Assembly: GCA_001661245.1 (NCBI GenBank)
Contig: KV454012.1
Coordinates: 1,910,418-1,974,417 of the forward strand
Length of the DNA stretch: 64,000 nucleotides
Origin: Pachysolen tannophilus NRRL Y-2460
Lineage: Eukaryota
Direction of reading: 5' to 3'
The position numbers were made by a program, and so were the translations under genes. The notes under the pieces were generated by a model. That model was not told where the DNA came from. It saw only the letters and a list, made by a program, of their open reading frames with translations, and made no database searches. This document shows positions 22,518-61,696 of the stretch, piece by piece. The number at the start of each line of letters is the position of its first letter. Positions within the stretch are counted from its first letter, which is position 1.

Positions 22518-25190
22518 TTACCAATGTTTTACAGTAACGACGTAATCTTCAATGTTGAGTAAGAGTTTTTTAAAATCTTGCCTAGAGATATTCTCCTTCA
22601 GTAATATCATTTCAAGTGCGTTTCTACCATTAAAGTATTTGAGGAGTTTGTAAAATAGAGCAGTTACTTCGGGTGATTTATTTTGAACAATTTTACTGAT
22701 CCATCTTCTTTCTAAAGCAGTAGCTCTTGCTGGATCCAATAATATGGTATCTTCTTCTTCTCTTATTATTATTCTTTGGTTATTTTTGGTATTAGTTGAT
22801 TGTGTTTTTTTCTTTTGTTCATTAATGTTTGCAGAGTTATCAGTTATTAAATTATCAATATTTTTATCAGCGATATTATTCTTGTTATCTGCAATAGGAT
22901 TGTCCAAGATGCCATTTTTATTATTAATATTATCATTATTGTTGTTGTTGTTGCTATTATTATTACTATTGTTGACCTTATTTGTACCATTATTTTTATT
23001 TTTATCCATTGCTTTTTTAAAATTTTCAATTTCAATTTCTTCATCAACGGCAATCTTGATATTATTTGTGATTTTCAACCAAAGAAAAGTATGTAATTGA
23101 ATAACCCAACCACTCCTAATAAGCCACGCTAGAGCATCCAAATATAAATCTCTATGGTCTCTTGATGGAACTATTGAAGAATAAGGACGCGTTTTGGAGT
23201 GTTGATGTGATAATAATGATAAAAAAGCTGGTAAAGAAGGTAATGATGGAAATTCTTGTTTGAAATCATCCAGATCTTTATATAAACTTTTAATAGATGC
23301 CATTGGTGATATCACATAGACATTACGGGTATGTAATGGAGGTACAGCAATTGCCCGCCTCCAATAAACTAAATGATGACAAAATGATAATACTTGAGAT
23401 AATTCAAGTCCACTTATAGCTGATAATTTAACAAGATTTTCTGTAGGTTTAATTAATCTTATGAAATTGGCAATTATACTATCATTATCTGCTTGAATAT
23501 CTTTTATAATTGTTTCTGGATCATCTAAAAGTAATAATGCAAAAAATTTTACCATATCATTATCCGATTCGTTATCAATAGCGTCTTGTCTGTGCTCAAT
23601 ATTTGAATTTTTGAAAAAAGGATTGATAGAAGAAATATAAGACCCAGGCAAAACAGGTACAGTTAATGGTGGCAAAGATTGAAATTCATTACGAATTGGA
23701 ATCTGGAAAGATCTAATTTTCCCATTTATATCAACGTTTACAATTTCACTAGTTGAAATAGATTTAAAAGTTTGATAAATGATATTAGCCAAAGAAGATT
23801 TTTCAATAATTAATGACCAAAGTTCATTAATTGATAACTGATCTTGATTTTGTTCTTTTAACATCATGATCTTGTGAGCCTCTTCATATACGAAATTCGT
23901 CTTATCTTGTTCATATCTCAATACTAGTGATAATCTAGATGCCACAAAATGATACATTTCATCAACACGATGATTGTATTCAACAACAGGCGGATTCATC
24001 ACAAATACTATATGAAACATATTCATTGGACATTTTTCATCATCTTCCTTAATGTAGGTTTTTACTTCGTAATTATCGTTTGCTTCATCATTGCTATCTA
24101 TGTCCTCCCGGGTACTCATATTATTATCACTCTGTTGTTCTTTTCCTTCATCTTCTTCATTAGTCTCTATATGTTTTGTATCATCTTCAACATGATTATT
24201 AATATCATTATTTTCATCACCATTTCCCTTAATCTCCTTCAGTCGATCATTCTCACTTCCCAGAGATTTTCTACTATTTCCACTTTTCCTACTTCTCCTA
24301 CTGGAATATTTTTTCCTACTTTTAACTAACCTCCATCTACCATTATCATAAACATGAATTGGAAGACCTAAAAATGACATATCATCAATCGTTAATTCAA
24401 ATCTAGTGTTACATAATTTCTTTGGAGGTGTCACCATTTCACTTAAGAAATCTGTCTCAAATCCAAAAACTTTTTTAAGAGATCTTAACCCATTAATTGG
24501 TAAATTGGATCTATTATTCGTAGCATGAGAAGTAGTTCGTGAAACACGAGAAACATTATCAGCACCTTCAGATGTTGTAATTCCACCGCTATTCGATTTA
24601 GCAGAATTCAAACCTTGATGTATAGTCTTTTGGGCCTCACCAGAAGAAATATTATCATTAACAGCAGTAATATCACTACTATTATTGGTATTGGTATCAC
24701 TGTGATTCAGTAGAGTACTCTCCATATTCCTATTCATTATATTTTTAATCAATTTTGTCTTCTTACTTTCCTTTCTTTTCCTTTTCCTATCTTGTTCATC
24801 CAATATATCCAACAATGCTTTCCCACTTAAGTAGTTTTGATCATTATAATTTGAAGCTTGATGACTGTTAAAACTATTAGTTCTATGTGAGCCAGAAGTA
24901 AAATCCAATGATGATTGATTAGCAGAAGAAGACACAGTAGCATCGTCTTCACCATCATCCAGATCCAACCCACTATCTCCTTCTTCATAATCTTCGTCCT
25001 CCGAGGAAGACGATGATGATTCCACCGCTCCTGTGGTCTTCAAATAATCTTTTTGTTGAGCCAATGGAGTAGCTTTGTAACCGTATTCATTTGGCCTAGG
25101 AGGATAATGAAACAGTAACTGTGGCCCATCATGTGTTGATATTGTAAATAATATCCCTAGCAAACACGGATTAGGTAAATAGAGTGACAT
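22518..25190 (-). CDS. NPR3: SEACIT/GATOR1 subunit Npr3 (Rmd11)
   Basis: LPNPCLLGILFTISTHDGPQLLFHYPP, CNTRFELTIDDMSFLGLPIH, MFHIVFVMNPP, HLVYWRRAIAVPPL and DTILLDPARAT. Confidence 0.96.
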   Translation of the reverse strand: MSLYLPNPCLLGILFTISTHDGPQLLFHYPPRPNEYGYKATPLAQQKDYLKTTGAVESSSSSSEDEDYEEGDSGLDLDDGEDDATVSSSANQSSLDFTSGSHRTNSFNSHQASNYNDQNYLSGKALLDILDEQDRKRKRKESKKTKLIKNIMNRNMESTLLNHSDTNTNNSSDITAVNDNISSGEAQKTIHQGLNSAKSNSGGITTSEGADNVSRVSRTTSHATNNRSNLPINGLRSLKKVFGFETDFLSEMVTPPKKLCNTRFELTIDDMSFLGLPIHVYDNGRWRLVKSRKKYSSRRSRKSGNSRKSLGSENDRLKEIKGNGDENNDINNHVEDDTKHIETNEEDEGKEQQSDNNMSTREDIDSNDEANDNYEVKTYIKEDDEKCPMNMFHIVFVMNPPVVEYNHRVDEMYHFVASRLSLVLRYEQDKTNFVYEEAHKIMMLKEQNQDQLSINELWSLIIEKSSLANIIYQTFKSISTSEIVNVDINGKIRSFQIPIRNEFQSLPPLTVPVLPGSYISSINPFFKNSNIEHRQDAIDNESDNDMVKFFALLLLDDPETIIKDIQADNDSIIANFIRLIKPTENLVKLSAISGLELSQVLSFCHHLVYWRRAIAVPPLHTRNVYVISPMASIKSLYKDLDDFKQEFPSLPSLPAFLSLLSHQHSKTRPYSSIVPSRDHRDLYLDALAWLIRSGWVIQLHTFLWLKITNNIKIAVDEEIEIENFKKAMDKNKNNGTNKVNNSNNNSNNNNNNDNINNKNGILDNPIADNKNNIADKNIDNLITDNSANINEQKKKTQSTNTKNNQRIIIREEEDTILLDPARATALERRWISKIVQNKSPEVTALFYKLLKYFNGRNALEMILLKENISRQDFKKLLLNIEDYVVTVKHW

Positions 25191-26666: not shown

Positions 26667-28133
26667 TTATTTTTCTCTCTTTTCGTCATTAGCTTCATCA
26701 CCGGATCCAATATCTGGAGTCTGGCTTGAAGTATCTGCAGCCTTAATAGTTTCTGGATCGTGTTCTTGTGTTGAGCGTATTGGTTCGGTAATGTACATTT
26801 CTGATTCCTGGTAAGTGAATTCACCAATTTGTGCTGCATCAGTACCAGCTTCTTCTTCTTCTTCATCCAATCTAATTTTCAAGAAAGGAATTCTGTTAAA
26901 TGTTAATAATAAGATTGCAGTAACAATGGTACTCCATAAGAAGATTGAAGTACAAGCAGCTAATTGATAACCTAATTGTTTATAGAAATGATTAATCCAA
27001 CCACCATTGATGACAGTAGCACCATCAGTAGCTGCAACGTAATCTGCAGCAAATAAACCAGTTAATACACTTCCAACAAATCCACCAATACCATGAAGAG
27101 CAAAGACATCCATACCATCATCAATATGTAATAATTCTTTTAAATCAACACCAAAATTACAAGCAACAGCTGTGACAACACCAATTGGAACGGCAAAATA
27201 AACTGGAACAAAACCAGCACCTGGAGTGATACCAACCAAACCTGCAATTGCACCTGAGCACATACCAACTGTTGTCCATTTCTTACCACAACGGAAGTAA
27301 TCAACAAACATCCAAGCTAAACCACCACAAGCAGCAGCCAAATTTGTATTAACATTAGCATAATATGATCTAATAGTGGCGTTACCAGTACTACCACCAT
27401 TGAAACCAAACCAACCAAACCAAAGGAAAACTGTACCCAATACAACAGAAGTAACAGAATGAGGTCTATATTTTGGTAAACCTCTTTGAGTAATTGGATC
27501 TTTTCTCTTACCACAGATAAGAGCATAAACTAAAGCACCATAACCTGAAGTTTGATGGACTGGTCCACCACCTGCAAAATCAAGAGCACCTAATGTATAT
27601 AACCAACCATTAGCATTCCAAGTCCATTCAGCAATTGGACAATAAACAATTGTAATCCAACAAAAGAGGAAAACCATCATTGGACCCAATCTTGCTCTTT
27701 CAGCGGCACCACCAAGCATTAAAATACCTGTAACACATGCAAACATACCTTGGAAAAATACAAAATCAATTTCTGGAATCAATGTTGAAGATGGAGATGG
27801 AGCACCCAATACTTCTTTTAAAGAGAAATTTTTCATAGTACCTAAAAAACATGAAGCATCAGAAGCAAAAGCTAAAGAATAACCCCAAAAAAACCATTGA
27901 AAAGAAACTAAACATGCAACCATCATTGAAGCCCATAAAAGTGATAAAGCATGTTTTTTTCTAGCTAAACCAGAATATAAAAGTCCAATACCAGGAACCA
28001 TAATCCAAACTAAAGCACCCGATACAGCAACCCAAGCCATATCGGCTTTATCAAATTGTTCATTTAAATCAACTTCTAAAGAATTACCACCGGTTCCAGT
28101 ACCGGTGATACCTGAAGGTAATGCTGTACTCAT
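26667..28133 (-). CDS. MEP2: High-affinity ammonium permease/transceptor (Amt/Mep)
   Basis: GTGTGGNSL..DLN.QF N-terminus, DFAGGGPVH and ALHGIGG (twin His), FLWFGWFGFNGGS and GTDAAQIGEFTY...EPIRS, all Mep2-type. Several GATAA/TTATC sites lie upstream (about 28246-28430). Confidence 0.96.
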   Translation of the reverse strand: MSTALPSGITGTGTGGNSLEVDLNEQFDKADMAWVAVSGALVWIMVPGIGLLYSGLARKKHALSLLWASMMVACLVSFQWFFWGYSLAFASDASCFLGTMKNFSLKEVLGAPSPSSTLIPEIDFVFFQGMFACVTGILMLGGAAERARLGPMMVFLFCWITIVYCPIAEWTWNANGWLYTLGALDFAGGGPVHQTSGYGALVYALICGKRKDPITQRGLPKYRPHSVTSVVLGTVFLWFGWFGFNGGSTGNATIRSYYANVNTNLAAACGGLAWMFVDYFRCGKKWTTVGMCSGAIAGLVGITPGAGFVPVYFAVPIGVVTAVACNFGVDLKELLHIDDGMDVFALHGIGGFVGSVLTGLFAADYVAATDGATVINGGWINHFYKQLGYQLAACTSIFLWSTIVTAILLLTFNRIPFLKIRLDEEEEEAGTDAAQIGEFTYQESEMYITEPIRSTQEHDPETIKAADTSSQTPDIGSGDEANDEKREK

Positions 28134-30038
28134 TTTTTTTTTCTTCTCTCTTCTCTCTTACCCTTCTCTTTTATGTTTTAAATTTCAATTTGATAGAATC
28201 AAAATGAAAAAAAAAAAAAGAATAAAAAATTCAGACTAAGATTAGATAAAGTATAAATAAATAGAAAAAGAAAAAGAAAAATAAAAAGAAGAAAAAAAAA
28301 AAAAAAAAAAGAAAAGCTAAACCTCAATTTGAAGGTGATATTGAAAAGTATAAATACTCCTTCCTAATATTTATCAACATACATATGAAAACTCGTTCTA
28401 TGTCATCTGTATCTTATCCTATTTAGATAACTAGTTCTTTATGGGTGGTAAAAGAAAACTTAAAAAAAAAAAGAAAGAAAAAAAATTTTTTTTCTTTTTT
28501 TTCTCTTTCTTTTAAAATTAAAGCCTTATATGATTCTTGTGTATCAATAAAAAACGTCTTTGATTAAACTAAGATATCAAATAACAAATTGGCCTCTTAA
28601 ATTGCAAGAATAGTTATTATCAGTTGGAAAATTTTTTGTACCCAGAAATATATGCAAGTATTCAATTGTTTATTGTACATAAAAGGACATATTATGCAGT
28701 AAAGATAGGGTCAGAAGATGACCGTGGAAACATGAATTCGCGAGAAGCTTGGCTCCAGAACTACATAAATGGAAACGCAAAAAAAAAAAAGCAAAACCGC
28801 CGCTGGAAAGATAGATAGCGCGAATTAGATATGTATCTGCAGGATATGCGAGAAAGAGAAAGAAAGAAAATAAAAAAAACCCTATAGTGGAAAGAGGAAA
28901 ACAAAATAACACTGTATATGATGCAGATATTGTGTGATTACAAGAGTTTTTGAACTAGTGTGTGTATGAGCATATTAATATGGACTATGCACTAGTAATG
29001 TATCGTTGGTCCAATTGGGAATGCCAATTGGGATTAACCAATTGGAGAATGAACCAATTCCCACGCAATAGTATTCCCCACCACCACTTCTAGCACCACC
29101 ACTATATATATATATTTTATTTAATTCTATTGTTCTAGCTAGACTTTCGCGAATTAATGTAAAATGTGTCAAAATGAGGAAATTACTTGCAGATGTAGAT
29201 TTGTAAACTTTTAATATGTGTTTAGTTTTAATAGTGAAAAAAAAGGAGGAATTAGGAGGATTACATAAGCCTGATATCAAAATAGCGAGAAGCGAAAATT
29301 ACAAAAAAAAAATTAAAACCTTAATTTGACTTGGACGTGCATGTTTTTTTTTGATGAGTAAGTAGTAATAAGTTTCGCGAATACGTAATGCTATGCGGAA
29401 TTTTTTTTTTAAAATTTGAATTTGAATTTGACACATAGCGATAAACTTGTTGTTAAATTGTGATTGGATAGATTACAGTTACTGATAAGAAACCAACCAG
29501 TTGAAATCTTTAACGAAACTAATTTACATACATATTATGCCATTTTTTTTTTTTATTAAAACATTTCGGAATATTATTTTCTGGAAATATATTCAAACGT
29601 TTGTTAAAATTGAATTGACAGTTAGTTTAGAGTGCTTTCCTTCTATATAGTGAAAATTAAATTCTTTATCAAAACTTTTCTCTTTATATGAATCATTCCA
29701 CTAAACCCAATTCTATTATCAGTTAATCAATTTACTCTTAACTATAAATCTGTATTATATACATATGTATACATATGTATATAAAAATGCCAATTATTAG
29801 GGCCTATATCGGCTTTTTTTGTTTGCTTGTTTGTTTGTTTGATACCGGAATTACAAATTACACTTTAATTTTTCTTCTTTTTTTTTTTTAGTTCTTAACG
29901 CCCCTATTGATCTTTCAAAAAAAATAAATAAAAAAAAAAAAAAAAGGAAATAATCGCTTTTTCATGCTTTAATCTATCTACTATCTCTTTTTTTATGAAA
30001 ATATATTTTATAAAGTCGTGCGCTAGCACAATATAACT

Positions 30039-30110
30039 GCCGTTATGGCCAAGTGGTAAGGCACCGCACTTGTAATGCGGCGATCCGCGGTTCAATCCCG
30101 CGTGACGGCA
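30039..30110 (+). tRNA. tRNA-Thr(UGU), intronless, 72 nt
   Basis: Acceptor stem GCCGTTA/TGACGGC; D arm GCC-AAGTGGTAA-GGC; anticodon arm CCGCA-CT TGT AA-TGCGG; T arm CGCGG-TTCAATC-CCGCG; T-runs downstream. Confidence 0.97.
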
Positions 30111-30393
30111 AAAAAATTTTTATTTTTATTTTTTATTTTGTTAGAGACAAAAAAGGTAGTGTACTTTTGTATTAATTGAAACCTCTTTTTTTTTTTTTTT
30201 TACTTTCTTTCTTTCTTTCTTAATGCTGCTCTCTTTTTGTATATGATGATGCAGATGTAGTAATAATAATAGTAAATAGTAATAAAACATAAAGTAAAAT
30301 TGTTTAATGTTTATAATACACAATTAATCAATTTTTTTCTTTTTCTTTTTCTTTTTTCTTTTGCTTTAGACAATTAGTATTTTAGAATTTTAA

Positions 30394-32650: not shown

Positions 32651-34152
32651 ATGGTTGAGTTGAATAGGAAAAGAGTAAGTTGATTAGTTAATTGTTATTA
32701 TTGTTGATTATTATTATTACTAACTGCAATTTTTAGAACAATGATCTGCTGATTTCAAGTCAGGAAAAACTCATAGTGAAGAAGCAACGATTTGATTCCA
32801 TTGTTAAAGAGGTTGCTGTGCTATTCAATCTTAATACTTCTGGTTCTGATATAAGGATAACATCTGATAAACAAGTTTTATTGCTTGGAAGGAGTAGTCA
32901 TTGTGACATTAAATTTGATAGTCCTGACGTTTCATCGAAACATTGTTCAATAGAGATAACACAAATATATACTGCATCTGTTATAAGATACAACTTGACA
33001 ATAACGGATTTAAGCTCTAACGGTACTTTTATTAACTCTGTGTTATTGGGGAGAGGAAATACTCACTTGTTGAAGTCGGGTGATGAGATAACGATTGCTC
33101 AGAGTGGTAACAAGTATATATTTAGATACCTTTCAGAGGTAAAGGGTAAGAATTCAAATTATATCATTGGAAAAAAATTAGGTTCTGGACATTATGCTGA
33201 TGTTAAAGAGGCCATAAATAGAGTTACAGGTGAAGTGGTGGCTATAAAAATATTTCATCCTAATAACAAAAATGATTACTTGAAGGAATTAAAACAGGAA
33301 TTACAAGTGTTGATGTCAATATCTCATCCGAATATTGTGAAATTCCATGATACTTTCACAGAATCTTTGGATAATTATACTCAAACTACATGTTTGGTAT
33401 TGGAAAAAGTAAATGGAGGAGAATTATTCCAAAGAATTGTGGATAAGCAAAAATTGAGGGAAAATGAAACTATTGCTTTATTTAAACAATTGTTACAAGG
33501 GCTAGGTTACTTACATTCCAGAAATATTATACACAGAGATTTAAAACCTGAAAATATTTTACTCGAGATAAAACCTAGAAGATCACTTTCAGAAACTCAG
33601 TCTGGTCCTTGGGATTCGAATGAACTAGATGTTCAAGTTAAAATTGCAGATTTTGGGTTGGCTAAATTTATTGGTGAGTTTAATTTTACAAACACTCTAT
33701 GTGGTACTCCTGCTTACGTTGCTCCAGAAGTTTTACAGAAAACACGAAAATATAATAAAGCAGTTGATTTATGGTCATTAGGTGTTTTGCTATATGTATG
33801 CCTTTGTGGATTTCCTCCATTTTCTGAAGAACTAGGTCCTCCTTCTATGAGACAGCAAATATTATCAGGTAAATTTGCATTTTTTTCACCTTATTGGGAT
33901 CCAATATCAGATTTTGCCCTAGATTTAATTACAAGATTATTAGTTGTTGATCCTACAAAGAGGTTAGATGTAAATCAAACACTGAATCACATATGGTTTA
34001 CTGAAAATAAAAATGAAAATAAAATTTCTGAAGCAACAAGGCAACTAAGTGTTACAAGATTGACGAAAAAAGATACAGTCCCACTCACTTTAAAGGAAAG
34101 AGTAGAAACTGCGATGGCCATTGATAATGTTGAAAAAGACAATAATAAATAA
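32651..34152 (+). CDS. DUN1: FHA-domain DNA-damage checkpoint kinase Dun1, join(32651..32674,32737..34152), 479 aa
   Basis: Exon 1 MVELNRKR; 62-nt intron GTAAGT..TACTAAC..TAG; FHA domain (GRSSHCD, SSKH, SSNGTFIN); kinase with LGSGHYA and the Dun1-specific insert GPWDSNELDVQVKIADFGLAKF. Confidence 0.95.
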
Positions 34153-35831
34153 ATTTAATTGCCTGCTTAATTTTTCCAAATACTCTAGTTTGAGGATTGG
34201 GACTTAGTTGGATATATCAAAAAAAAAAAAAAAAAAAACTTTGAACAAGAAATGAGCGTATATTTTTAGCTTCAAATTAAGAATCATCACCATTCATTAG
34301 CTTGCTAAAATCACATATATATATATATATATATTTCTTTTAATCTTAGCCCGCTAGATTTACTGTCATTAAAGCCTTATCGTTTTTCAAAAAGTTTTAC
34401 AATATTTTATGTCAACTATTTTTCAGTTTTCCGTGGTTGCCTTTAAGGTTCTCGTAGTGCTGTTATCGGATTCCAAATTTTTTCACCGATCCTAAAAGAT
34501 AAGGGAGTCCAAACCCGCTCACCAAGTAATATCTTATTGGTCTTCATCGCTCGCTCGCTACCTTGATTCTAATTCATTTTCACCTGAGAAACTATCTCAA
34601 TTTTAAAACATTATAAAAGCATTATAAAGCATCTTTGACAGTCTAGGTAGATGAGATCACAAACCTTGGATCTGGAAAGTTTCTTCTATTGCATTATCGG
34701 CTATCAAAAAGATATAAAAGACAAATTAACTTGTTGAAGTAAGGCCGCTCTTACTAATTTTTCACCTTGTAGATTTTTTTCCCCAAATAATACAAAGTTT
34801 CCATACAGACAATAAGCAAATTGTGGTTTGAAAACAACATCAATTTTCATTTAATTTTCTTGTCAATTTGAATTTATTTAATAGTTTAATGTTTTTTTTG
34901 CTTTCCCACTGAAAGGCCCATTCCAGGATATAGTGATGTTGTTCGTATTTCATTTCCATGTTGTTTTCTCTTGCGAGTAATGGAACTAAAAAATATATTC
35001 AAGATATATTCACCTTATTGATCGGAGTTTATTTTCCAGAAGATTAAGTACCATAATCCATAATCCATAATTTTATAAGTTTGATTTCTTTTCTCCGTTA
35101 AATTAAACCAAATGAAAATGTGTTGAAAATGAGCTTAAACACTTGTTTCTCTTGTTTCCGAGGAAGAGAAGAGAGCATATATCATTGATGGTATAGCATT
35201 TCGAATTCTATGGCGGAGTGAGTAACTAGCATTTGCTGAGTTTATGTGGTAGAAAATGGTAAAAAATGGTAAAAAGGTGTACTCATGAGGTGAAACTTGG
35301 ACAGTGTTAATACAGTTGGATGCTCGATTCGACACTGGATAATTCAATTTGATGGCGAACAGAACAGGTGTTTTTATCTTTTTGATAATTTTTTGGTTTG
35401 CGCCATTAATTGGTAGTAGAGCATCAAGCGAGGCATTATCATTTTGAATTCCATTCCCACCAGCAAGATGTTCACAGTTAATTAATGGATCCTATCCCTA
35501 CAATAGTAATGGTTTAGCAATCAGGGATAGGATAGACTTGACAGCTTTACAAAATATTTTATTATATTGTAGAAAAAACTAAAGAAAACACCATACACAC
35601 CATTGAGAAGTGATAAAGCTTAAGAAAACAGTCTGACCGTCCAAGAAAGGTACGGATTAATGGTAATAAAGAAAATTGATACAGCAGACTGGAACATCGA
35701 ACTGAAAAATCGAAATCAAAATCAAAGAAAAGATTAAAAAAAATAAAATAAAATAAAATAAAATAAAAAAAGAAATATAGAGAATTAAAAGCCAAATCAT
35801 CAAGAATTTATGGAGTTGGAATAGGAATAGG

Positions 35832-37475
35832 CTAGTGAGCCTTGAAACCATATTTATCAATCAAATCCCAATAGCTTTGGGCAGTCTTTTCCCGGAATTT
35901 TTTACCAACTGCAATCATAGCGAATGAAAGACCCCAGAAGAACATACCAAGAAATCCAATTGCGATATAAAGGTTTTGCACACCAACTTTTTCTAACCAA
36001 GGAGTAACAGCATAACTAAAACCAAAACCCATTGAGTTACGGATTAGGATCATAGTAACAAGACCATCTCCAGAGACTTCTTTATAACAATCAATAATGT
36101 AATTGATTGCAATTGCACTTCCCATTGGGAATGTAGAACAAATCATTCCTAAACCAAACGCGAGACCAATCCAATGAATGCCCTTAGCAGCACCAATACC
36201 ATACAAGAAACAACCAAATGGATGAATGATCATAGGTATGATTGATATGAATAAACGAGATTCTGGTTCTCTGTATCCTTCACTTTTACGTGCTTGTCTA
36301 ACTGTATATTGGTCTGCAATCTTACCAGAAAAGTAACTTCCAAGAGAAATACCAATTGCTGGACATATAAAAAATACACCGACAATATCTGCTGAAAAAT
36401 TATAAGGAGGATCACCAAGAACTGAAGCGATCGTTGCATTAACGACATTAAACCAAGAAAGAACGGCACCAACTGTGAGACCAGCGAATAAAATACTTGG
36501 ATATTTGACAAGGTAGAAAGGCATCCACATTGATTGGAAGAACACATTCTTTTGTCTTTTGTCTCTTGCTCCCCAAAGCTTAAGTTTTTGAGCAAAAGTC
36601 TTCCTTGTATAGGTTGCGGTGTTTGGAGTTTCATCACTGTTGACATTTTCAACATTAACTTTAGTATTGGATTTTTCGGACAACTTTGGTAATACATCTT
36701 GAGTTATTTCTTCGACATGGTCTAATTCCAAAATTGGATCACGATAGTACATCGTTTCTTCTAAACAGAAAAATAGGATAATCAAACATCCAGATGCTAT
36801 TATAGAGGCAATGAACTGAATCCATTGCCAGCCGTACCTGTCGGATATAAAACCAGCAACAATACCACTTAAAAATGGAATATTAAATAGAGTCCAACAG
36901 TACCACGCAATCCATCCACCACGTTCATGTGCGAAGAAGACATCTGAAATGCAAACTTCAATTAATGTTTCAATTGGTCCATAAAAAGTTCCAACTAATA
37001 ATCTGTTGATATACCATTCACCTGCACTTGTGACATACGCTGACCAAATAGTACATAGCATGCATGCTAATCCGCAAAATAAAATAATTGGTCTACGTCC
37101 GAATGTTAAACCAAGTGGTTGCCATATCAAATTAGACCAACCGAAGAAAAGGTATTGGATTCCAACACCTGTATTCAAATCAGTAAGCGATATACCGGTA
37201 TCTGCTTCGATGACAAGTAAAACAGCAGAAAGAGCAGTACTTAATATGTCCGCTGAAAATACTGCAAGCATAAGACAGAAGGCTAATTTCATTTTCCTTG
37301 GTTTTGACCAGTTCAATGGATCATCTGGATCGTCAGTTGGTTGAGGTACTAAAACAATATCATCACCTTCTTCATGTCTGATATCTAATGTACCCTCGAG
37401 ATCCACTAAATGAATGGTTCCTGGCACTTTTATCTCGTGGTTTACCTCTGGTTCTGCTGTCGACATGTCGGTCAT
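35832..37475 (-). CDS. HOL1-like major facilitator superfamily transporter (547 aa)
   Basis: PGTIHLVD...IVLVPQPTDDPDDPLNWS, FGRRPI, SDVFFAHERG, REPESRL and YIIDCY; about 12 hydrophobic segments. Confidence 0.93.
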   Translation of the reverse strand: MTDMSTAEPEVNHEIKVPGTIHLVDLEGTLDIRHEEGDDIVLVPQPTDDPDDPLNWSKPRKMKLAFCLMLAVFSADILSTALSAVLLVIEADTGISLTDLNTGVGIQYLFFGWSNLIWQPLGLTFGRRPIILFCGLACMLCTIWSAYVTSAGEWYINRLLVGTFYGPIETLIEVCISDVFFAHERGGWIAWYCWTLFNIPFLSGIVAGFISDRYGWQWIQFIASIIASGCLIILFFCLEETMYYRDPILELDHVEEITQDVLPKLSEKSNTKVNVENVNSDETPNTATYTRKTFAQKLKLWGARDKRQKNVFFQSMWMPFYLVKYPSILFAGLTVGAVLSWFNVVNATIASVLGDPPYNFSADIVGVFFICPAIGISLGSYFSGKIADQYTVRQARKSEGYREPESRLFISIIPMIIHPFGCFLYGIGAAKGIHWIGLAFGLGMICSTFPMGSAIAINYIIDCYKEVSGDGLVTMILIRNSMGFGFSYAVTPWLEKVGVQNLYIAIGFLGMFFWGLSFAMIAVGKKFREKTAQSYWDLIDKYGFKAH

Positions 37476-37643
37476 TGAATATCCTTATTATAATACAATA
37501 ATATTATAAGACTATATGTTTCTTCTAAAAAGAAAATAAACTAAGTTATATTACAATCACTTGCGAAAATAATGGAATTAAAAATTCATTTATAAACTTT
37601 AGCTTGAAGATATGAAAAATCAAGAAGACGTTTTGCTCATCAT

Positions 37644-38313
37644 AGTTATCTAGACAGAAGAAATCACAATAACGCTATTAGTTTAAAGATTTTTTTTCGT
37701 ATGCACATACTTCAAGATAAGACATTTAACGAGCTTCGTATTAACTTTACCCTTAATGTCATCTGGGTCCGGAGACTTATTTTTTGCTTATCAGTTATCA
37801 ATTTTTCCTTTATCACAGTTAATTCTGAAAACTGCATGTCGTCATTATCTACTCAACTTGTCGGATTCAATTATTCCTTGCAAAAGAAGACTAATCGAAA
37901 TATGTGCATTCCGAGCGCTTGTTAAACTCAAGTTGATACCAAATTGGGTTTCAGAGTTGTTTGTCTGACCAGTTCAAACTTCAAATTCAAGTTTTGTATG
38001 TATTAGGAAATTCCACATTTAAAGTTTCATGTGGAGCATTAAAAATACTGTCCTTATCTCTGCTTTACAGAAGATCAATTGTACAACGACGAACTTAATA
38101 AGGAAGGGAAACTGTGTCCTAAAAAGAACAATTTTATGGTATTTTGGATATGTGATTTACGATTGAATACTAATGAATGAGGAATAATTTACCTATATCA
38201 GCTATTATAATCCTTGATAACTGATTCTGTATGTTTTAAAGTTGGATTTAATCTAATTATACCAAGTTTTTCGACCACTAAAGATCAATATTAAGAGGGG
38301 GACACTTGATAAG
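37644..38313. promoter_or_regulatory. GATA-rich bidirectional promoter (nitrogen catabolite repression-type)
   Basis: GATAAG at 37716 and 38308, CTTATC at about 37787 and 38053, plus TTATC/GATAA at about 37646, 37795, 37810, 37845 and 38216. Confidence 0.6.
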
Positions 38314-38566
38314 CCAAATTTTGTTCAATAATCCAACAAAAAGGAATGAGATACGTCAGTTTCTCTTAGCTACGATTCAAAAAGTATAATAAACATACAG
38401 GTTTTAACGCTTGTACAGAAAAATTGTGCATTTAGGCAAAGTATTTTTTGTATCACTTCTTTAATCTTGGAAGAAAACATATTTAACCTTAAGAACATCT
38501 TGAGCGAATTTTTTAATTCCATTTCAGTTCTATAACTTTCTCCAACTGAAGAATCTGTTTTGAAAA

Positions 38567-40177
38567 ATGTCTATTGCTTATATCAACGGAGATATTTATA
38601 CTGTGGATGAGAACAGCTCTAGAGCTGAAGCTTTCATTGTTAATGCTGATGGAACTTTTGGTAAGGTTGGTACTACCGACGAAATTTTAGGCCTTGCAAA
38701 AAGCATAGAGGTAATTGATTTGCATGGTCAATTTGTAATGCCAGGTTTACATGATGCGCATTGTCATTTATTAATGGCTTCAGAAGAGAAAATTTTCCAA
38801 GCCAAATTAGGTTGTGATTTAGGTCCAAATGAAATTGTTAGTAAGCTTAAGGAATACCAAAGTGGAGCTTGTGCTCATTTAGAAACGGTTAGTAACTGGT
38901 TGGTGGGTAATTTTTATCATTACGCGAATTTTAAAGATGAAAAACCTGATAGGCAATTTCTTGATGATGCTTTCGGTGATCAACCGGTTGTTATCAGGGA
39001 GTATACTACTCATAATATTTTTGCAAACACTGCTGCATTAAGAGCTGCAGGTTATGAAGAAAATCCTAAAGATCCTTGGGACGGCTACTATGTTCGTAGA
39101 GAAGATGGTACAATTACAGGTGAATTAGTTGAAGGTGCTGCAACTAGAATGTTTGCTTCGTTACCAAAAGGTAGACCTGAAGACAACTTTAAAGCATTAG
39201 AATATGGTGTCAAAATGTCTAATCGTTTTGGTTTTACTGCGGTTCAAGAGGCATCGGCAAACACCGTTTATTTAGAGGCTGCCAAGAAATTGGAAGAACT
39301 GGGTAAACTTACTATCAATTTAGATGCACATGTTGTATTTTATGGTGTAGGCGCTTTCCCTCAAGAAAGTGTAGGTTCCTTACATCATACGCTTTATAAT
39401 GCCAAAAATTACAAAAGTAAACATTTTAACCCGATGTTCACAAAATGTTGGCTTGATGGTGTTCCATGGCATCCACATGAAACGCACTGTCCAATTAAAG
39501 GTGATAAGCCAGATTATGATAGATTATTGATTCCCCAAAGTACTTTCAAAAAGGCCATTGAGCGTTTTGATGCTGAAAACAGAACATGTAAAGTTCATGT
39601 ATGTGGTCAAGGTTCAGCTAGGTTTGCCCTAGATTGTTTTGAAGAATTACGTAAGATAAATCCAAATGGACCAAAACATGAGTTAGCTCATAATATGGAT
39701 GTCACTGAAGAAGATTGTAAACGTTACAAGGGTTTAAATATCACTGCAGAAATGAGTCCGGCTATTTGGCATGATCCCGATTTTCAACCAGAAACTAATC
39801 CTAAATCAGTTTATCCTTTCAATACTTTGAAAGATAATGGCGCTCTTATTACTATTGGTTCCGATTGGGTTTTTGCTCCTGATACTCCAAATATCTTTCC
39901 TGGAATTCAGGCTCTTACCGAAAACAAACATGGTTGGAATTTGAAAAGAGAAGAAGTTGCGAGAATGATTACAATAGATGGTGCTAAAGCTGTTGGAAGA
40001 GATTCTGCCGAAGGTAGTATCGAAACAGGAAAAATTGCCAACTTTATTTTATTAGATCGTGATTTCATTACTGCTCCAAGTATCTCTGAAACTATTGTCA
40101 AGAAAACATATTTTGAAGGTAAAAAAGTTTACGATTATGATACAGATGATCTCAAGCATTTGCAAGGAAAAGTTTAA
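38567..40177 (+). CDS. Metal-dependent amidohydrolase, amidohydrolase_3 / YtcJ-NfdA-like family (536 aa)
   Basis: NGDIYTVD, IDLHGQFVMPGLHDAHCH (HxH), H..FANTAAL, TGELVE, KCWLDG, VHVCG, HELAH, GSDW and GSIETGKIANFILLDRD. Confidence 0.92.
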   Translation: MSIAYINGDIYTVDENSSRAEAFIVNADGTFGKVGTTDEILGLAKSIEVIDLHGQFVMPGLHDAHCHLLMASEEKIFQAKLGCDLGPNEIVSKLKEYQSGACAHLETVSNWLVGNFYHYANFKDEKPDRQFLDDAFGDQPVVIREYTTHNIFANTAALRAAGYEENPKDPWDGYYVRREDGTITGELVEGAATRMFASLPKGRPEDNFKALEYGVKMSNRFGFTAVQEASANTVYLEAAKKLEELGKLTINLDAHVVFYGVGAFPQESVGSLHHTLYNAKNYKSKHFNPMFTKCWLDGVPWHPHETHCPIKGDKPDYDRLLIPQSTFKKAIERFDAENRTCKVHVCGQGSARFALDCFEELRKINPNGPKHELAHNMDVTEEDCKRYKGLNITAEMSPAIWHDPDFQPETNPKSVYPFNTLKDNGALITIGSDWVFAPDTPNIFPGIQALTENKHGWNLKREEVARMITIDGAKAVGRDSAEGSIETGKIANFILLDRDFITAPSISETIVKKTYFEGKKVYDYDTDDLKHLQGKV

Positions 40178-43100
40178 AAAGCTTTTTCTTCAGCTATGTA
40201 TATCGAGTTTATTTTTTCTTATTCTTCTTCTTTTTTTTTTTTTTTTAACTTTGCTACTTGCTACAATGCTTACTTAGTTCCTTAGTTCCTTAACTTTTTA
40301 TTTCGATTGATTTATTCATTTGAAGATCTCTCTTCATCGTTATAAATCAAAAATAAATTATACTTTTTTGAAGTTGTTCGCGAAAGCAAAAGTGTCTTAT
40401 CTTTAAACTATAAAATATTTCGTAAATTTTGAATTATTGAGCTGTTTCTAATGGTAGATAGATCAATAACCTGAATTATGTGATAGACAGTCAATGTTTT
40501 CGGTTTTCCCAAATTTTTACGAGCCAAGAAACACAGGTTATCTTGAAGTAAAAGTTTTGCGTAATCTTGCTTTGTTTTTTCTTTCGGCTAATGATAGTGT
40601 GTATTTTGGAACTACTGATAAGAAGTTGCATATATCTGCATCCAAAAAGATTCTCTTATGTAAATTTATTTAAATTGATAAATTATTATGATAGATCTGA
40701 TTAAAACAATTTCAATTATACAGTAACTGACTCTAGTTCAGCAGTTCCTTTCAAAAACAGACTTGTTTGAATATTAGGTTTGAAAATTCTTAATTTTTTC
40801 TATATTTTAGGAAAATATTTCCATTTCTTGAGATAAAAATATACGAAGATTGACCAAGAGTTACCATAACTCACTCATTGCATGTGATACGGGTTTAAAC
40901 ACTGTTTTGGGGAATATGATGTTTTGACCTTGACCAGTGTTCCAGTAAGTAAGTCTGTTTTATGGATATTTTGGTCATTTACAGAATTACCCCGAGCTAG
41001 ACTGTGGTTAACTTAGCCAGTGATTTCTCTCTTGCCTTGGATTTGTGGTATCTTTTAATTGATAGAAGCAAAAATAAAATTATCAAGATAAGTCACAATC
41101 TCCAAAATACTTTTCTTTTTAATCAAAGTAGCTAAATACCCTTTTAGGTGCAAAAACCTCAAACCCATTTTTGGGTATCACAAGAATTTGTGATAATTCA
41201 AACTGTAGATAACGATAAGAGAATATACAATCTCAATACATTCGTTAAATTGTTACCGTTTGAAGCAAAGTTTTTCAAGCAAAGTTTTATCTTTTACTTT
41301 TGAACCCAAATTGTTTGCTCTTTTATCTCAAAAAACTGATAAGAAAAACGCTTAAACGCTGTAGATGATTTACAATCCACTTTTCAATTTTTCAATTTTT
41401 CACTTTTTCACTTTTCTCTAATACAATGGAAACTATTCGAAATAATAACGGCCTTTCTAATGATCAATAAATTGCTATTTTTTATTTTTTTGCAGAGGTA
41501 TCGTTTGATAAAGATGTGTTTTATATGTTATGTGTGTTTTCTATGTCCGACGCACGATTATGCATATATATATATATATATATATTATTATTATTATCTG
41601 GACCCGTAAATAATACCATTTCGGAACTAGGTTACATTTTTGTAAATTACATTGCGGCTGCGGTTACAAATTCTGCAAACCAGAATTTTTCCAAACAGAA
41701 ACATTATAATTCAGCAATCGATCAGATAGAAACTGTTTAATTTTTGAAAAAATAATATCTTTATAGTTTAGGAGATACCGGCGAAGATTTTTTATCCATG
41801 AAAAGTATATATTCCAATGCCTATATTGGTCTTTAAAAACATGGTTTACCTTTTCGAAAATTGTTGACACAAAAAAAATGAAAAGAAAAATAGCTATTCA
41901 CAATTTTGAAATAAACTCAATTTTAATGAAAAATCTTCAGTGCTCCACGTAAGATATTAATTAAAAATGCATTGCAAAATGTAAGGAAAACTTATCTCAA
42001 ACAACTTCAATAATTGCTTTTTTGAGCATCAAAAATTTACCTAACAAAGAATAAACTATGACAATATAGAAAATATAGAATTCAGACCGTCAAATAGTCT
42101 GAAATAGATGCCAGTCTTTGAAAACGTTTTTTTTACAGCTTTCCAGAGAAACACTTTATTCTCAACTGGTTTCCATTTACCAGTCTCTAACATTTCCATA
42201 TTGTTCGGTAAATTCATATGCTACCAGAACTTTGAATAAAAAGTTCTAAAATTAGCTTTTTCAGTAACTGCCTCTTTCAACATTAAATTAAGCCCAACAT
42301 GACGTACCATATAAACTAGTTCTGGTTTGTTAAATAAGCTCAATATACAACCTTGAATAGAATCAATTGGAAAGCAAAGAGGAAGTTTAGTATTGTTTAA
42401 AACCAAATGTAGCTATAATTATAGAACGCTGAAAAAAAAACTACTAAAATATTAAAGATTAATGAACTCGTAAAAGCATCAGAAACCAATAAATTTCAAG
42501 ACCAAAAGAGCATCAAAAAACCGTTTCCAATATTAAAATATGAACAAAAGAAAGAAAGAAAGATCACTTGAATCTTGATATAAAAGTAGTTTCCTAATCA
42601 GGAAATATTTTTTGAGTCATATGCACAACGTACATGCAGGATTGAAGAGCAAATGACTGAGCGAGCATGTCTGGATGGATATCAATAATATACTAGTGAT
42701 ACGAAACCACTTCAATCTGTAATACAGTAATTTTAGAAAACATTTCCTTTCCATATACTAATGTGTAAAAAATTTAACCAGACTTTTTTTTTACCGATTG
42801 TGACAAGCTTTTCATTATTGTTGAAGGAGCCTGTTGCTTTATTTTTCAAAGCTATAGGAAGGACGCAAGGAAAGACCTTATCTAATTGTTTTTTTTTTAT
42901 TTTAGTTGTCAGAAAAGTGTATTCCAATTATAGCAAGATCCCATAATTATAGAAAAGTCCCTGGTTTTAATAGCAATCGAGATTTTCCCATAAAAAATCA
43001 TATCTCAATTTAAAGGACTGAAGTATCTAAAGTGAATAAGAGTATACTTAAGTATATACCTAATAAAGTACACTACTACTACATTAACTACGCATATTTA

Positions 43101-44508
43101 TTTGGTTGTTAATTGAAGATTTTAAAAAATTGCTAATTGCAAACAGTTTTCATCTGTTGCTAGGGAAGTAATTTTTTGTAACTGAATAAATTTGAGCATC
43201 TTAATTTCTCCTCTGCAGCTAAAAACCAGTAACTACGTAATCTCCCTCAATAAAAAAAAAACAATTCAAATAGAATCTTTTAATTAATTGCTTTAATTTT
43301 GAAAAAAAATTAGTACTATATATGAGATTTTTAAGATTTCATAAAGTAATGTTAGAATACATTTTAGCACCCCAATCTAAGCATAGCTTTAAGCGACTAA
43401 AAGAATTTCATAAAGTTAAATCCAACTAACTAAACTTTGATACAATTACAATCATAATGTTGATTTGAAATTGTTTTTTTGTTTTAAAAGGCGCTAAGTC
43501 TTATTTATTGCTTTAAAGTTGGATTCAATACTAACTCTACCTTGTAATAAGATCAAGTTGCTTTCCCCTACTTGCCCGTTGAAATTTCCAGCTTAATTTT
43601 TTTTTTTTCCTTTATGATCCACTGATCCACTGATCCACCCTTACAACAACGTTTTTTTATTATTTTCTTGGCGTGACTTGCTGGCTAATTTCATAGTATT
43701 CGGGAAACTTTTAACGGTATTAATCTATAACCTTTTTCAAAAAAAATTAGTGCGACAGAAAGTTTTCGAGTCTCATACCAATGTGCTACAAAGATTAAAG
43801 TAATACTGTCAAGCAAAAAATACGTAATATTTTTTTTTGTTATTATAAAGGGTTGAATTGAACTCCTAGCAAAGAAAAGTTATAGTTCGGCAAAAAATGA
43901 GGTTTGAATTTTTTTTGAGTTTAACCACTAAACTTTTAATTGTAGATAGGTAGATAGATGATCTATAATTTTTCAAATTGTTACTCATGAAGTCAGTCAT
44001 CTCCTAGATGTTATAGCCGAAAGAAAATAGCCGAGTTAATATTTGAAAATCAATTGAACAACCATCTTATCTGAACGTGGATCCCATATATATAAATAAG
44101 AATGTAGTCTAACAAGATTGTTCTTTATAAACTTGTATTCTTTAAAACAGAGAAGGCAAACAACTGTAAATATACTTTATTTATAACAACTGCATCCAGC
44201 TTAAACAAGAAAAAAAAATAGTAAAACTCCTTATACCAATAACAAAAGCGTCTAATTAATAAAACAATACTAAATTACAAAAAAGTTTATGATCTGAAAA
44301 ATGGCAAAAAAAAGAAAAAGTTATAATGGGAGGGACAAACAAAAAGTACCTGATAAAAAAAAAGAAAAAGAAAAAAAAACAGTACAAGTGCTGATTTGCT
44401 AAATGTAAAAATTCTTTCTATGGAAGAGCCAAAACCATTGAAGAGAACAAGAATCAAAAGTTCAAAAGCTATGGTATAGCTTGAGCTGAAGTGAAATCAA
44501 AAATTTAT

Positions 44509-49151: not shown

Positions 49152-50838
49152 CGCAGCTCTCTTTATTACTGTATCACGAAATTGTGACAAGTTGGAAAAA
49201 CAAAAACATCTTTTTTTTTTTTTTTTTTTTAATTTTTTTTTTTGGTCCGCTTAAAACATTTCTATTTGAAATCGAGTAAGGTGCATACTATGATCTGCTC
49301 TTATATGCTTTACTTTACTTTACTTTACTTTGCTTTTACTTAGTTCTACTGTGCTCTTTGGTGCTCTTTGAACAGGCTTTAGAAAACAAAACAAAATAGA
49401 AAAAAAAATATAATATATATTCATCTACATCCTAGTCAATATTATGTATTAAAAGCTTTTTTTAAAATCAAAATTCAAGATTTTTTATGCAACTATTAAT
49501 GATTCTCGATCCCTAAATACATGATGAACAAATAAGAGTAACACAATTTTTTTTTTTTTATAAAATATTATTTTGCAAGTACATCCCACTTATTATTATT
49601 ATTATCGTCTTTTAACCAATAAATAATAGTAATAATAGTCGTATTAGTAGTTGTAGTTTTTATTTTGTAAATATTATTAAAAAATTCAACTAAATTCGTA
49701 AAATCACATAATCACATAACCACAACTTCTCTTATGCATTCGTGCCTACTATAATATGACCTTTCTGAAATTTGTCCTTCTAGTAAAAGATGAAGATGAA
49801 TCTCCGGGTAAATGTTTTTGTTTTCGTTTTTCAAAAAAATCTCAACTAAACAAAGTCGTGTAATTTAAAATAAAAAAAAATCAAAAAAATTTAAAAAACC
49901 CAAATTGATATTACCAACACTACTTTTAATTTAATAATTTTTTTTTCTTTTCTTTTTTTTTTTCTTTTTTNNNNNNNNNNNNNNNNNNNNNNNNNNNNNN
50001 NNNNNNNNNNNNNNNNNNNCGCAGCTCTCTTTATTACTGTATCACGAAATTGTGACAAGTTGGAAAAACAAAAACATCTTTTTTTTTTTTTTTTTTTAAT
50101 TTTTTTTTTGGTCCGCTTAAAACATTTCTATTTGAAATCGAGTAAGGTGCATACTATGATCTGCTCTTATATGCTTTACTTTACTTTACTTTACTTTGCT
50201 TTTACTTAGTTCTACTGTGCTCTTTGGTGCTCTTTGAACAGGCTTTAGAAAACAAAACAAAATAGAAAAAAAAATATAATATATATTCATCTACATCCTA
50301 GTCAATATTATGTATTAAAAGCTTTTTTTAAAATCAAAATTCAAGATTTTTTATGCAACTATTAATGATTCTCGATCCCTAAATACATGATGAACAAATA
50401 AGAGTAACACAATTTTTTTTTTTTTTATAAAATATTATTTTGCAAGTACATCCCACTTATTATTATTATTATCGTCTTTTAACCAATAAATAATAGTAAT
50501 AATAGTCGTATTAGTAGTTGTAGTTTTTATTTTGTAAATATTATTAAAAAATTCAACTAAATTCGTAAAATCACATAATCACATAACCACAACTTCTCTT
50601 ATGCATTCGTGCCTACTATAATATGACCTTTCTGAAATTTGTCCTTCTAGTAAAAGATGAAGATGAATCTCCGGGTAAATGTTTTTGTTTTCGTTTTTCA
50701 AAAAAATCTCAACTAAACAAAGTCGTGTAATTTAAAATAAAAAAAAAATCAAAAAAATTTAAAAAACCCAAATTGATATTACCAACACTACTTTTAATTT
50801 AATAATTTTTTTTTTCTTTCTTTTTTTTTTTTTTCTTT
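49152..50838. repeat. ~820-bp direct duplication flanking an N-gap (49152..49970 vs 50020..~50838); probably an unmerged contig overlap
   Basis: The copies appear identical except for homopolymer lengths and are separated only by Ns (49971-50019). Confidence 0.9.
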
Positions 50839-60740: not shown

Positions 60741-61696
60741 TTTTGAAATAAAATATTTATATATATAGATAAATTGATTTAATTATAATTGACTTAAATT
60801 CAATTCTATAAATTATAATAAAATTATAATAATATAATTAAAATATTTTCTTTCATCAATTAAATTTAAATTTGTTGACGGTAAAATTAAAGCAAAAAAA
60901 AATTTTTCATTTTAAAAAAAAAAAATTTAACAAAACAATTTTTACGAAAATTTAGCCAAAAGAATAAAAAAAAAAGTTAACTCTCATTCAGATTTTATGT
61001 AAGAGACAAGTTTTGAAAAGAGGAATTGTAATTACAAAGAAAGATATGAATACTATATGTGAGACATTGAGTGATTCTTCAAGTAAATTTTCAAGTGAAT
61101 TAATTGTAGAGATTCAATGATTCTACAAAATATAACACAACAAAAACAAAACAAAAAAAAAAAAAAATTGTATATACAAAAATAATTAAAAGTAAATAGT
61201 AAATTTTCAGATAAAAATTTCTCGACACTGTTTATTAAGACAGGGATAACTGTATAATAAATTTGATAAATTTTTCTCATCATGTTAAAACTGAATTACT
61301 TTTAAAATAAAATGCAACAAAAAAAAAAAACAAAAAAACAAAAAATAAAACTTTCAAGTCTTTTGTATACTCTACTACACTCTACAGAGAAGGCAATGTA
61401 ATACTTTTTCCAAAACCTTTTGAAAACAATAATATATATAAAAGATTATCCTTGACAACTCTGAGATTGAAAACTTAAATATAATAATATAATAAATAAA
61501 TAGTATTAATAAAGTATTTAATTTATTATTAGTATTCTTTAGCGGTTATTTTATATACAAAATTTTTCTTTTTTTTGTTTGCAAATTTGAAAAATTTTTC
61601 TTGCAAAAAAAAAAAAAAGAGAATTACCTAAAACGGAAATTGTGTGTGTCTACGTGTTAGAAACACGACTTGTAGTAAAAAGAAAAAAGAAAAAAA

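Follow-up and report, generated by a model that had tools for sequence, protein, structure and literature searches.

A divergent transporter-amidohydrolase gene pair of Pachysolen tannophilus: a probable two-gene catabolic module with conserved linkage in Ascomycota

The gene pair and its recurrence in other fungi

We describe a pair of neighboring genes of the yeast Pachysolen tannophilus NRRL Y-2460, one encoding a major facilitator superfamily (MFS) transporter and the other a YtcJ-like metal-dependent amidohydrolase. The pair lies within a 64,000-nucleotide stretch of contig KV454012.1 (assembly GCA_001661245.1, positions 1,910,418 to 1,974,417 of the forward strand), the whole of which was analyzed and is referred to here as the window. 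In the list of open reading frames (ORFs) of the window, the two genes are arranged head-to-head and diverge from a 1,091-bp spacer (Table 1). An earlier account made from the letters alone (the sequence-only reading) had given these coordinates, this arrangement and a spacer of about 1.09 kb, all of which agree with our measurements. Our verdict is that the pair is genuine and undescribed, a two-gene catabolic module of a conventional kind, and that both genes probably work together in the uptake and breakdown of a nitrogen-containing compound. Literature searches on YtcJ in fungi, on a Pachysolen amidohydrolase and on the locus tags of orthologues returned nothing relevant to the pair or its orthologues.

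The strongest observation is that the two genes stay together in other genomes. Orthologues of the amidohydrolase (at least 66% identity) were found in eight named species among the matches listed: Ogataea philodendri, Yamadazyma tenuis, Candida arabinofermentans, Scheffersomyces coipomensis, Tortispora caseinolytica, Cladophialophora carrionii, Exophiala mesophila and E. oligosperma. By locus tag, the amidohydrolase and transporter genes are adjacent in Y. tenuis (PSN45_000877/878), E. mesophila (B0A52_02453/02452) and C. carrionii (G647_07848/07849), and they are one gene apart in O. philodendri (OGAPHI_006335/006333, with OGAPHI_006334 between them). Linkage is therefore visible from locus tags in four of the eight species, two yeasts and two black yeasts, belonging to two subphyla. 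In C. arabinofermentans and T. caseinolytica both genes are on contigs of equal size, and for S. coipomensis and E. oligosperma a transporter orthologue was not among the 120 matches listed. Seven of 14 further orthologue rows also have a transporter orthologue on an equally sized contig, including contigs of 8,856, 13,068 and 15,300 bp, and four of the remaining seven come from contigs shorter than 3 kb, too short for two genes. These data support a unit whose linkage is kept across budding yeasts and Pezizomycotina, and the check for recurrence that the sequence-only reading had proposed thus came out positive. A patchy, accessory-like distribution is likewise real. Complementary genes linked across distant taxa, as found here, are the hallmark by which fungal metabolic gene clusters are recognized.

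Both ORFs are collinear with their homologues across 98-100% of their length, so both genes are intronless, as had been claimed. The database copy of the transporter starts at the second methionine and has 544 aa. Neither protein contains the N/Q runs that the sequence-only reading had noted as absent, although this does not set the pair apart, as 8 of the 15 other large ORFs in the window are also free of them.

The amidohydrolase matches Amidohydro_3 (PF07969) with 177.3 bits against a cut-off of 29.7 (E-value 1e-51), residues 48-522 aligning to profile positions 1-472 of 472. Its metal-centre ligands H65, H67, K293, H344, H375 and D433 (HxH, Lys, His, His, Asp) are conserved without exception in the 31 aligned sequences, which comprise orthologues, fungal paralogues and bacteria, and the protein is predicted to be of the binuclear-metal subtype of the amidohydrolase superfamily with an intact metal centre. 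An AlphaFold2 model was obtained with a predicted local distance difference test score of 92.4 and a predicted template-modelling score of 0.92. Its best fold matches were the Pyrococcus hydrolases 3IGH (E-value 4e-28, template-modelling [TM] scores 0.70/0.77) and 3ICJ (E-value 6e-28, TM 0.69/0.78), which differ in being archaeal, uncharacterized and only 20-21% identical; characterized enzymes among the fold matches reached TM scores of at most 0.57, with imidazolonepropionase at 0.54. Orthologues at 68-70% identity carry the Joint Genome Institute (JGI) name 'predicted amidohydrolase YtcJ'. From the closest folds and these JGI names, we assign the enzyme to the YtcJ-like subgroup (COG1574/cd01300). 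Other resources were less specific: no NCBIfam family scored above its cut-off for the amidohydrolase (best 42.8 bits against 298), solved structures, when searched by sequence, yielded nothing beyond weak and partial matches (best E-value 3e-8), and the ESM Atlas returned generic names only for both proteins. Two Gram-negative homologues in the alignment have about 25 extra hydrophobic residues at the N-terminus. The fungal amidohydrolase has no such N-terminal extension, which fits a cytosolic enzyme in need of an importer.

The closest precedents for its chemistry are bacterial. NfdA, an N-substituted formamide deformylase of Arthrobacter pascens, is said to have been described by Fukatsu et al. 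in PNAS in 2004; the enzyme converts N-benzylformamide to benzylamine and formate, that is, a secondary amide to a primary amine and an acid. It belongs to the same Pfam family as the window amidohydrolase and, by alignments in the available text of two 2026 preprints (PMC13081902, PMC13081988), to the same YtcJ-like subgroup, with the ligand set HxH/carboxy-Lys/His/His/Asp. In that text, 3ICJ, NfdA and new taurine-specific bile-salt hydrolases fall into one YtcJ/COG1574/cd01300 subgroup, the known members of which hydrolyze secondary amides and release a primary amine. The bile-salt hydrolases, from gut bacteria (BwBSH1 and the Turicibacter faecis enzyme), are also PF07969 proteins and were modelled on 3ICJ, which is among the closest folds here; they cleave an N-acyl amine (taurine conjugates), and the cell uses the released amine. 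They differ from the window amidohydrolase in being bacterial, BwBSH1 being a 101-kDa protein with extra domains, and yeasts associated with wood or insects would not be expected to have bile-acid conjugates as their substrate. The only match named after NfdA's activity (Cyphellophora, P0114) is 35-37% identical to the window amidohydrolase and sits in another fungal clade. According to the available text of the same preprints, an enzyme annotated as N-substituted formamide deformylase did not cleave N-benzylformamide, so the label would carry no substrate over to the window amidohydrolase. The sequence-only reading had proposed a YtcJ/NfdA-type enzyme; its YtcJ-like Amidohydro_3 part, with an intact metal centre, stands, whereas the N-formyl/N-acyl substrate that it took from NfdA is unsupported, as within the subgroup the label does not predict substrate.

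The amidohydrolase orthologue group is sharply isolated. In the homologue search it spans 66-83% identity and is followed by a drop to 48% or less. In an exhaustive search of 1.84 billion representatives it forms a single cluster at 50% identity (876 bits); the full-length match that follows is only 43% identical (380 bits). Within the group, conservation is high. The window protein is 81-82% identical to that of O. philodendri and 79% to that of Y. tenuis, and the corresponding values for the essential GTPase NOG1 in the same species are 78% and 77%. NOG1 of the window is without a near relative among sequenced genomes: the best match in its search was 82% identical, and named matches from Scheffersomyces, Candida, Kuraishia, Ogataea and Yamadazyma were at 77-81%.

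The transporter matches MFS_1 with 91.7 bits against a cut-off of 33.4 (E-value 5.7e-26). Its orthologues are 64-79% identical in yeasts and 55-59% identical in Chaetothyriales and Leotiomycetes. Hol1 of Saccharomyces cerevisiae is an MFS protein of the DHA1 family, known from histidinol/cation uptake mutants and from high-affinity polyamine import. The window transporter resembles it in its MFS_1 fold and similar size. However, the only protein that bears a HOL1 name in its source ('HOL1 substrate-H+ antiporter', Fusarium, P0183) is 42% identical and lies in a sister clade, outside the orthologue clade, and the 'Hol1-type' description given to the transporter earlier is unsupported.

The amidohydrolase gene also bears on the genetic code of its source. 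It has a single CTG codon, at residue 245, which is alanine in the database copy. Translation with table 26 (CTG as Ala) reproduces that copy, whereas table 1 (Leu) and table 12 (Ser) differ from it at this residue; the nuclear code used by the source genome, or at least by its annotation, is therefore the Pachysolen type of the CUG-Ala lineage. Decoding of CTG from homologues gave no answer, as residue 245 falls in a variable alignment column. The 17 large ORFs of the window contain 78 CTG codons among 10,244 codons.

The shared spacer and the flanking DNA

The spacer contains nine GATAA cores, four of which are GATAAG, and nine HGATAR sites in 1,091 bp; the sequence-only reading, which had counted about nine GATAA/GATAAG sites, was accurate in this. 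The cores fall into two clusters, one toward each gene (Table 1), and six GATAA per 200 bp is reached by just 0.16% of sliding 200-bp windows. Nine GATAA compare with 4.5 expected on a whole-window basis (Poisson P 0.04), and 7.6% of sliding 1,091-bp windows reach that number. For GATAAG, four sites compare with 0.72 expected (P 0.006), as many being found in 1.9% of sliding windows. Measured against intergenic DNA only, P is 0.029 for GATAA and 0.018 for GATAAG. Among the 17 intergenic regions of at least 300 bp in the window, the spacer ranks first in density for GATAA (8.2/kb), GATAAG (3.67/kb) and HGATAR (8.2/kb). The second-highest HGATAR density (7.4/kb) is found upstream of the window's MEP-type ammonium transporter gene. 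The right flank of the pair holds eight GATAAG sites. In S. cerevisiae, GATAAG arrays mark targets of Gln3/Gat1, and by extension from that yeast the GATAAG sites here may be nitrogen-control sites as well. The enrichment is consistent with such control but modest. The GATA-based co-regulation that had been proposed thus gains from the top rank of the spacer but is held back by an enrichment that is only modest (P about 0.02-0.03).

Table 1. Coordinates of the gene pair, its spacer and its flanks in the window
Feature	Position	Strand	Remarks
MFS transporter gene	35832-37475	minus	547 aa ORF; Pfam MFS_1 match
YtcJ-like Amidohydro_3 metal-dependent amidohydrolase gene	38567-40177	plus	536 aa ORF; end-to-end Pfam match
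Divergent spacer common to both genes	37476-38566		1,091 bp; presumed bidirectional promoter region
Six GATAA cores, two of them GATAAG	37646-37849		170-375 bp upstream of the transporter start codon
Three GATAA cores, two of them GATAAG	38054-38312		255-513 bp upstream of the amidohydrolase start codon
Left flank, gene-free	34153-35831		1,679 bp; bounded by the 3' ends of the kinase and transporter genes
Right flank, gene-free	40178-44508		4,331 bp; bounded by the 3' ends of the amidohydrolase and C2H2 zinc-finger genes

The flanks, which had been described as gene-free stretches of 1.7 and 4.3 kb, are indeed 1,679 and 4,331 bp long and contain no ORF of note, tRNA or Rfam match, though other parts of the window also have gaps, of 4.0 and 5.1 kb. 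The intervals between convergent genes in the window measure 176, 247, 434, 1,664, 1,679 and 4,331 bp, the flanks of the pair being the two longest of the six, and no ORF, Pfam, tRNA or Rfam feature accounts for their length. None of the 18 stop-to-stop ORFs in the flanks had a Pfam match below an E-value of 0.03; two Pfam matches in flank ORFs (E-values 0.037 and 0.09) were treated as noise. A search for mobile-element relics and flanking repeats found none, the repeats in and around the pair being of low complexity only. P. tannophilus has a genome of about 30% GC. The window is part of an AT-rich yeast chromosome, with 22-37% GC in most 1-kb bins, and the GC content of the two genes (0.365 and 0.376) and their GC content at third codon positions (GC3; 0.22 and 0.28) compare with 0.23-0.39 and 0.10-0.30 in the neighboring genes. 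The composition of the pair is native, and the locus bears no mark of insertion.

The surrounding genes are ordinary core genes, encoding a proteasome subunit, NPR3, the MEP-type ammonium transporter, NOG1, ANP1 and EF1-gamma. To the left of the pair, at a distance of about 8-13 kb, are two genes with nitrogen-related functions: a homologue of NPR3, a GATOR1/SEACIT subunit (22518-25190, minus strand), and the MEP-type ammonium transporter gene (26667-28133, minus strand). The reading frame of the kinase gene (32737-34152, plus strand) has its first ATG at 33313 and is open for a further 576 bp upstream with no in-frame ATG there; judged by eye, this upstream extension encodes a segment resembling the FHA type. 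A 5' exon followed by an intron is probable, which would make this a larger FHA-plus-kinase gene than the ORF list gives. Farther to the right, a stretch of about 770 bp occurs twice (49198-49970 and 50064-50838), the two copies being 93-100% identical with starts 866-868 bp apart. The listed repeat that ends at 49971 includes an N, and the duplicate has the look of either a tandem duplication or an artefact of assembly across a gap. Apart from a tRNA-Thr (TGT) gene (30038-30111, plus strand) and a C/D-box small nucleolar RNA gene (61203-61291, minus strand; snoR38 family, 50.9 bits), no RNA genes were detected in the window.

A proposed role in uptake and hydrolysis of a nitrogen compound

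We propose that the transporter would act at the plasma membrane to import a nitrogen compound with a hydrolyzable bond, probably an amide-type C-N bond, and that the binuclear-metal YtcJ-like amidohydrolase would cleave this compound in the cytosol to yield an amine or ammonia and an acid. Both genes would be read from the one divergent, GATA-rich region when good nitrogen sources are scarce, probably under GATA-factor (nitrogen catabolite) control. The interpretation that we favor, at somewhat better than even confidence, is that of a two-step catabolic module whose genes are inherited together; this module would be old within Ascomycota and kept in scattered lineages only. A known arrangement of this kind is the allantoin (DAL) cluster of yeast, in which a permease and a hydrolase are under nitrogen control. 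The pair resembles DAL-type clusters in its co-located permease and hydrolase, its divergent promoter with GATA sites and its patchy retention, and differs from them in its protein families and in having only two genes.

The surroundings of bacterial homologues were also surveyed. Of 79 loci, 36 were picked by eye for full flanks and taxonomic spread, and 33 of these gave a called enzyme ORF; the two nearest ORFs on each side were taken as neighbors, and 130 of 132 were scanned. An uptake-type transporter was among the four neighbors in 19 of the 33 loci (TonB receptor in nine, MFS in four, ABC in three, SSF in two and NCS1 in one), which fits a catabolic role of the enzyme after uptake, by analogy. 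A second amidohydrolase was present in four loci, and genes for an amine oxidase, a class-III aminotransferase, DAO, a methylamine dehydrogenase and an amidase were scattered among the neighbors. In seven loci (L010, L017, L038, L040, L042, L057 and L065) a CobW/COG0523-type GTPase metallochaperone gene stands beside the amidohydrolase gene, which hints that CobW may be a dedicated metal-insertion partner of YtcJ-like amidohydrolases in bacteria.

The chief rival explanation, although in our view rather unlikely, is a detoxification and efflux pair, in which the hydrolase would inactivate a toxic amide (a plant, insect or microbial defense compound, or a xenobiotic) and the DHA1-like MFS protein would export the toxin or its product. 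Many of the hosts, such as black yeasts and Amorphotheca, tolerate toxic substrates, which we count in its favor. The solved relatives from the wider superfamily also include xenobiotic hydrolases, namely molinate hydrolase, AtzA and TrzN, and the available text of PMC4021133 ties the DHA1 family mostly to drug and xenobiotic resistance. All 13 NCBIfam matches of the transporter were under their cut-offs (TIGR00880 reached 54.5 bits against 131), and the nearest of these curated bacterial families are multidrug-efflux MFS families, which leaves room for export. Set against this rival are the GATA-site density of the spacer, the highest among the window's intergenic regions, which points to nitrogen rather than stress control; the bacterial homologues, which stand mainly beside uptake systems; and the very strong conservation of the enzyme, which suggests one specific, recurrent natural substrate.

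The efflux-like matches of the transporter are one of several points that weigh against the catabolic module. The P values for the modest GATA enrichment are uncorrected for multiple looks, and GATAA clusters of like local density occur elsewhere in the AT-rich window (near 22.8 kb and 41.1 kb), including downstream of the amidohydrolase gene. Linkage in other genomes was read from locus tags and contig sizes, data in which orientation and spacing are not visible, and equal contig size is an indirect sign that two proteins come from one contig. The bacterial contexts are mixed, they belong to proteins only 34-41% identical to the window amidohydrolase, and the loci were picked by eye. Finally, a literature search by orthologue locus tags found no expression, transport or enzyme data for any member.

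A bolder version of the catabolic module, to which we assign a low probability, is that the pair is dedicated to salvaging a naturally occurring amide, be it an N-acyl amine, an N-formyl amine or a related compound, that is unrecognized as a fungal nutrient; the enzyme clade would then represent a new YtcJ-like substrate class, and the pair would have moved as a unit between fungal subphyla at least once (Tortispora, Chaetothyriales). Judging by the habitats of the hosts, such a compound would be one typically present in wood or bark, in tannin liquor or in insect frass.

Descent of the pair and its significance

Phylogenies of both proteins were built, as the sequence-only reading had suggested; the window copies fall within yeast clades and fit vertical descent, although the Tortispora amidohydrolase conflicts with this pattern. 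The amidohydrolase tree has 26 rows and no outgroup, its root position being unset, and a 67-row quick tree agrees with it. It resolves three separate groups: bacteria (support 100/100), the orthologue clade (100/100, on a stem of 0.79) and other fungal paralogues (94/90). Inside the orthologue clade, the window protein groups with four other Pichiomycetes yeasts (98/98), and the Tortispora protein groups with three Chaetothyriales (99/94). Forcing the six yeasts together costs 13.8 log-likelihood units, with an approximately unbiased (AU) test probability of 0.018 for a group chosen after the tree had been seen. In the transporter tree, the 14-row orthologue clade (100/99) contains a group of six yeasts (100/100), a group of seven Pezizomycotina (100/99) and an unplaced Tortispora. 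The window transporter groups with Yamadazyma and Scheffersomyces (Serinales; 96/92) and not with the Pichiales trio. Both trees thus divide in the same way, into Pichiomycetes yeasts (with the window among them), Tortispora, and a Pezizomycotina group rich in Chaetothyriales, and the two genes share a history. The window copies are compatible with descent within yeasts plus many losses. Only the Tortispora amidohydrolase is in conflict with the species tree, and one inter-fungal transfer involving Tortispora is possible.

A wider role for transfer, namely that the pair came to the window's lineage from another fungus as a two-gene unit and not by vertical descent with many losses, strikes us as doubtful. 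It would explain the patchy distribution, an amidohydrolase as conserved as NOG1 across yeast orders and the grouping of the window transporter with Serinales yeasts, and the Tortispora-Chaetothyriales grouping, the disfavored single yeast clade and the flanks, as the two longest convergent intervals of the window, also speak for it. Against these stand the position of the window copies inside yeast-only clades in both trees, the unplaced Tortispora transporter, GC and GC3 values within the range of the neighbors, a locus free of flanking repeats and mobile-element relics, and an AU group that was named only in hindsight. That the two genes are neighbors by chance, with unrelated functions, is very improbable, since their adjacency recurs across lineages split at the base of Ascomycota and the two trees run parallel.

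A recent acquisition from bacteria, either of an operon-like transporter and hydrolase or of the enzyme alone, is largely refuted: bacteria have many members of the family (11,891 representatives at an E-value of 0.001 or less), actinobacterial homologues reach 40% identity and four actinobacterial loci have an MFS gene nearby, but a search of 185,579 bacterial and archaeal species, each represented by one genome, gave no match above 41% identity, bacteria form their own clade apart from all fungal sequences, the composition is native, and the neighboring MFS proteins resemble the window transporter only at the superfamily level (E-values 0.006 and 8e-5, over partial stretches). In that search, 208 of 238 candidate stretches encode relatives. 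The MFS proteins compared stand beside the Rhodococcus homologues, and the transfer of a bacterial operon was rejected on all these grounds. The horizontal acquisition that the sequence-only reading had considered is therefore not borne out at this locus.

The YtcJ-like amidohydrolases comprise those 11,891 representative clusters, very few of which have known substrates, and according to the available text of the 2026 preprints (PMC13081902, PMC13081988) one YtcJ-like branch was found to hold unexpected bile-salt hydrolases. The fungal clade described here is sharply delimited, is conserved like an essential ribosome-biogenesis GTPase, is tied to a dedicated transporter and is present in growable, genetically tractable yeasts, which makes it a well-posed target for substrate discovery. 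The pair is a useful lead and no surprise in kind, its striking points being the conservation of the enzyme and the faithful linkage of the two genes across subphyla. If its substrate were found, yeast physiology would gain a trait of nitrogen- or carbon-source use, and the pair would become one more example of a small metabolic gene cluster that is kept or lost as a unit.

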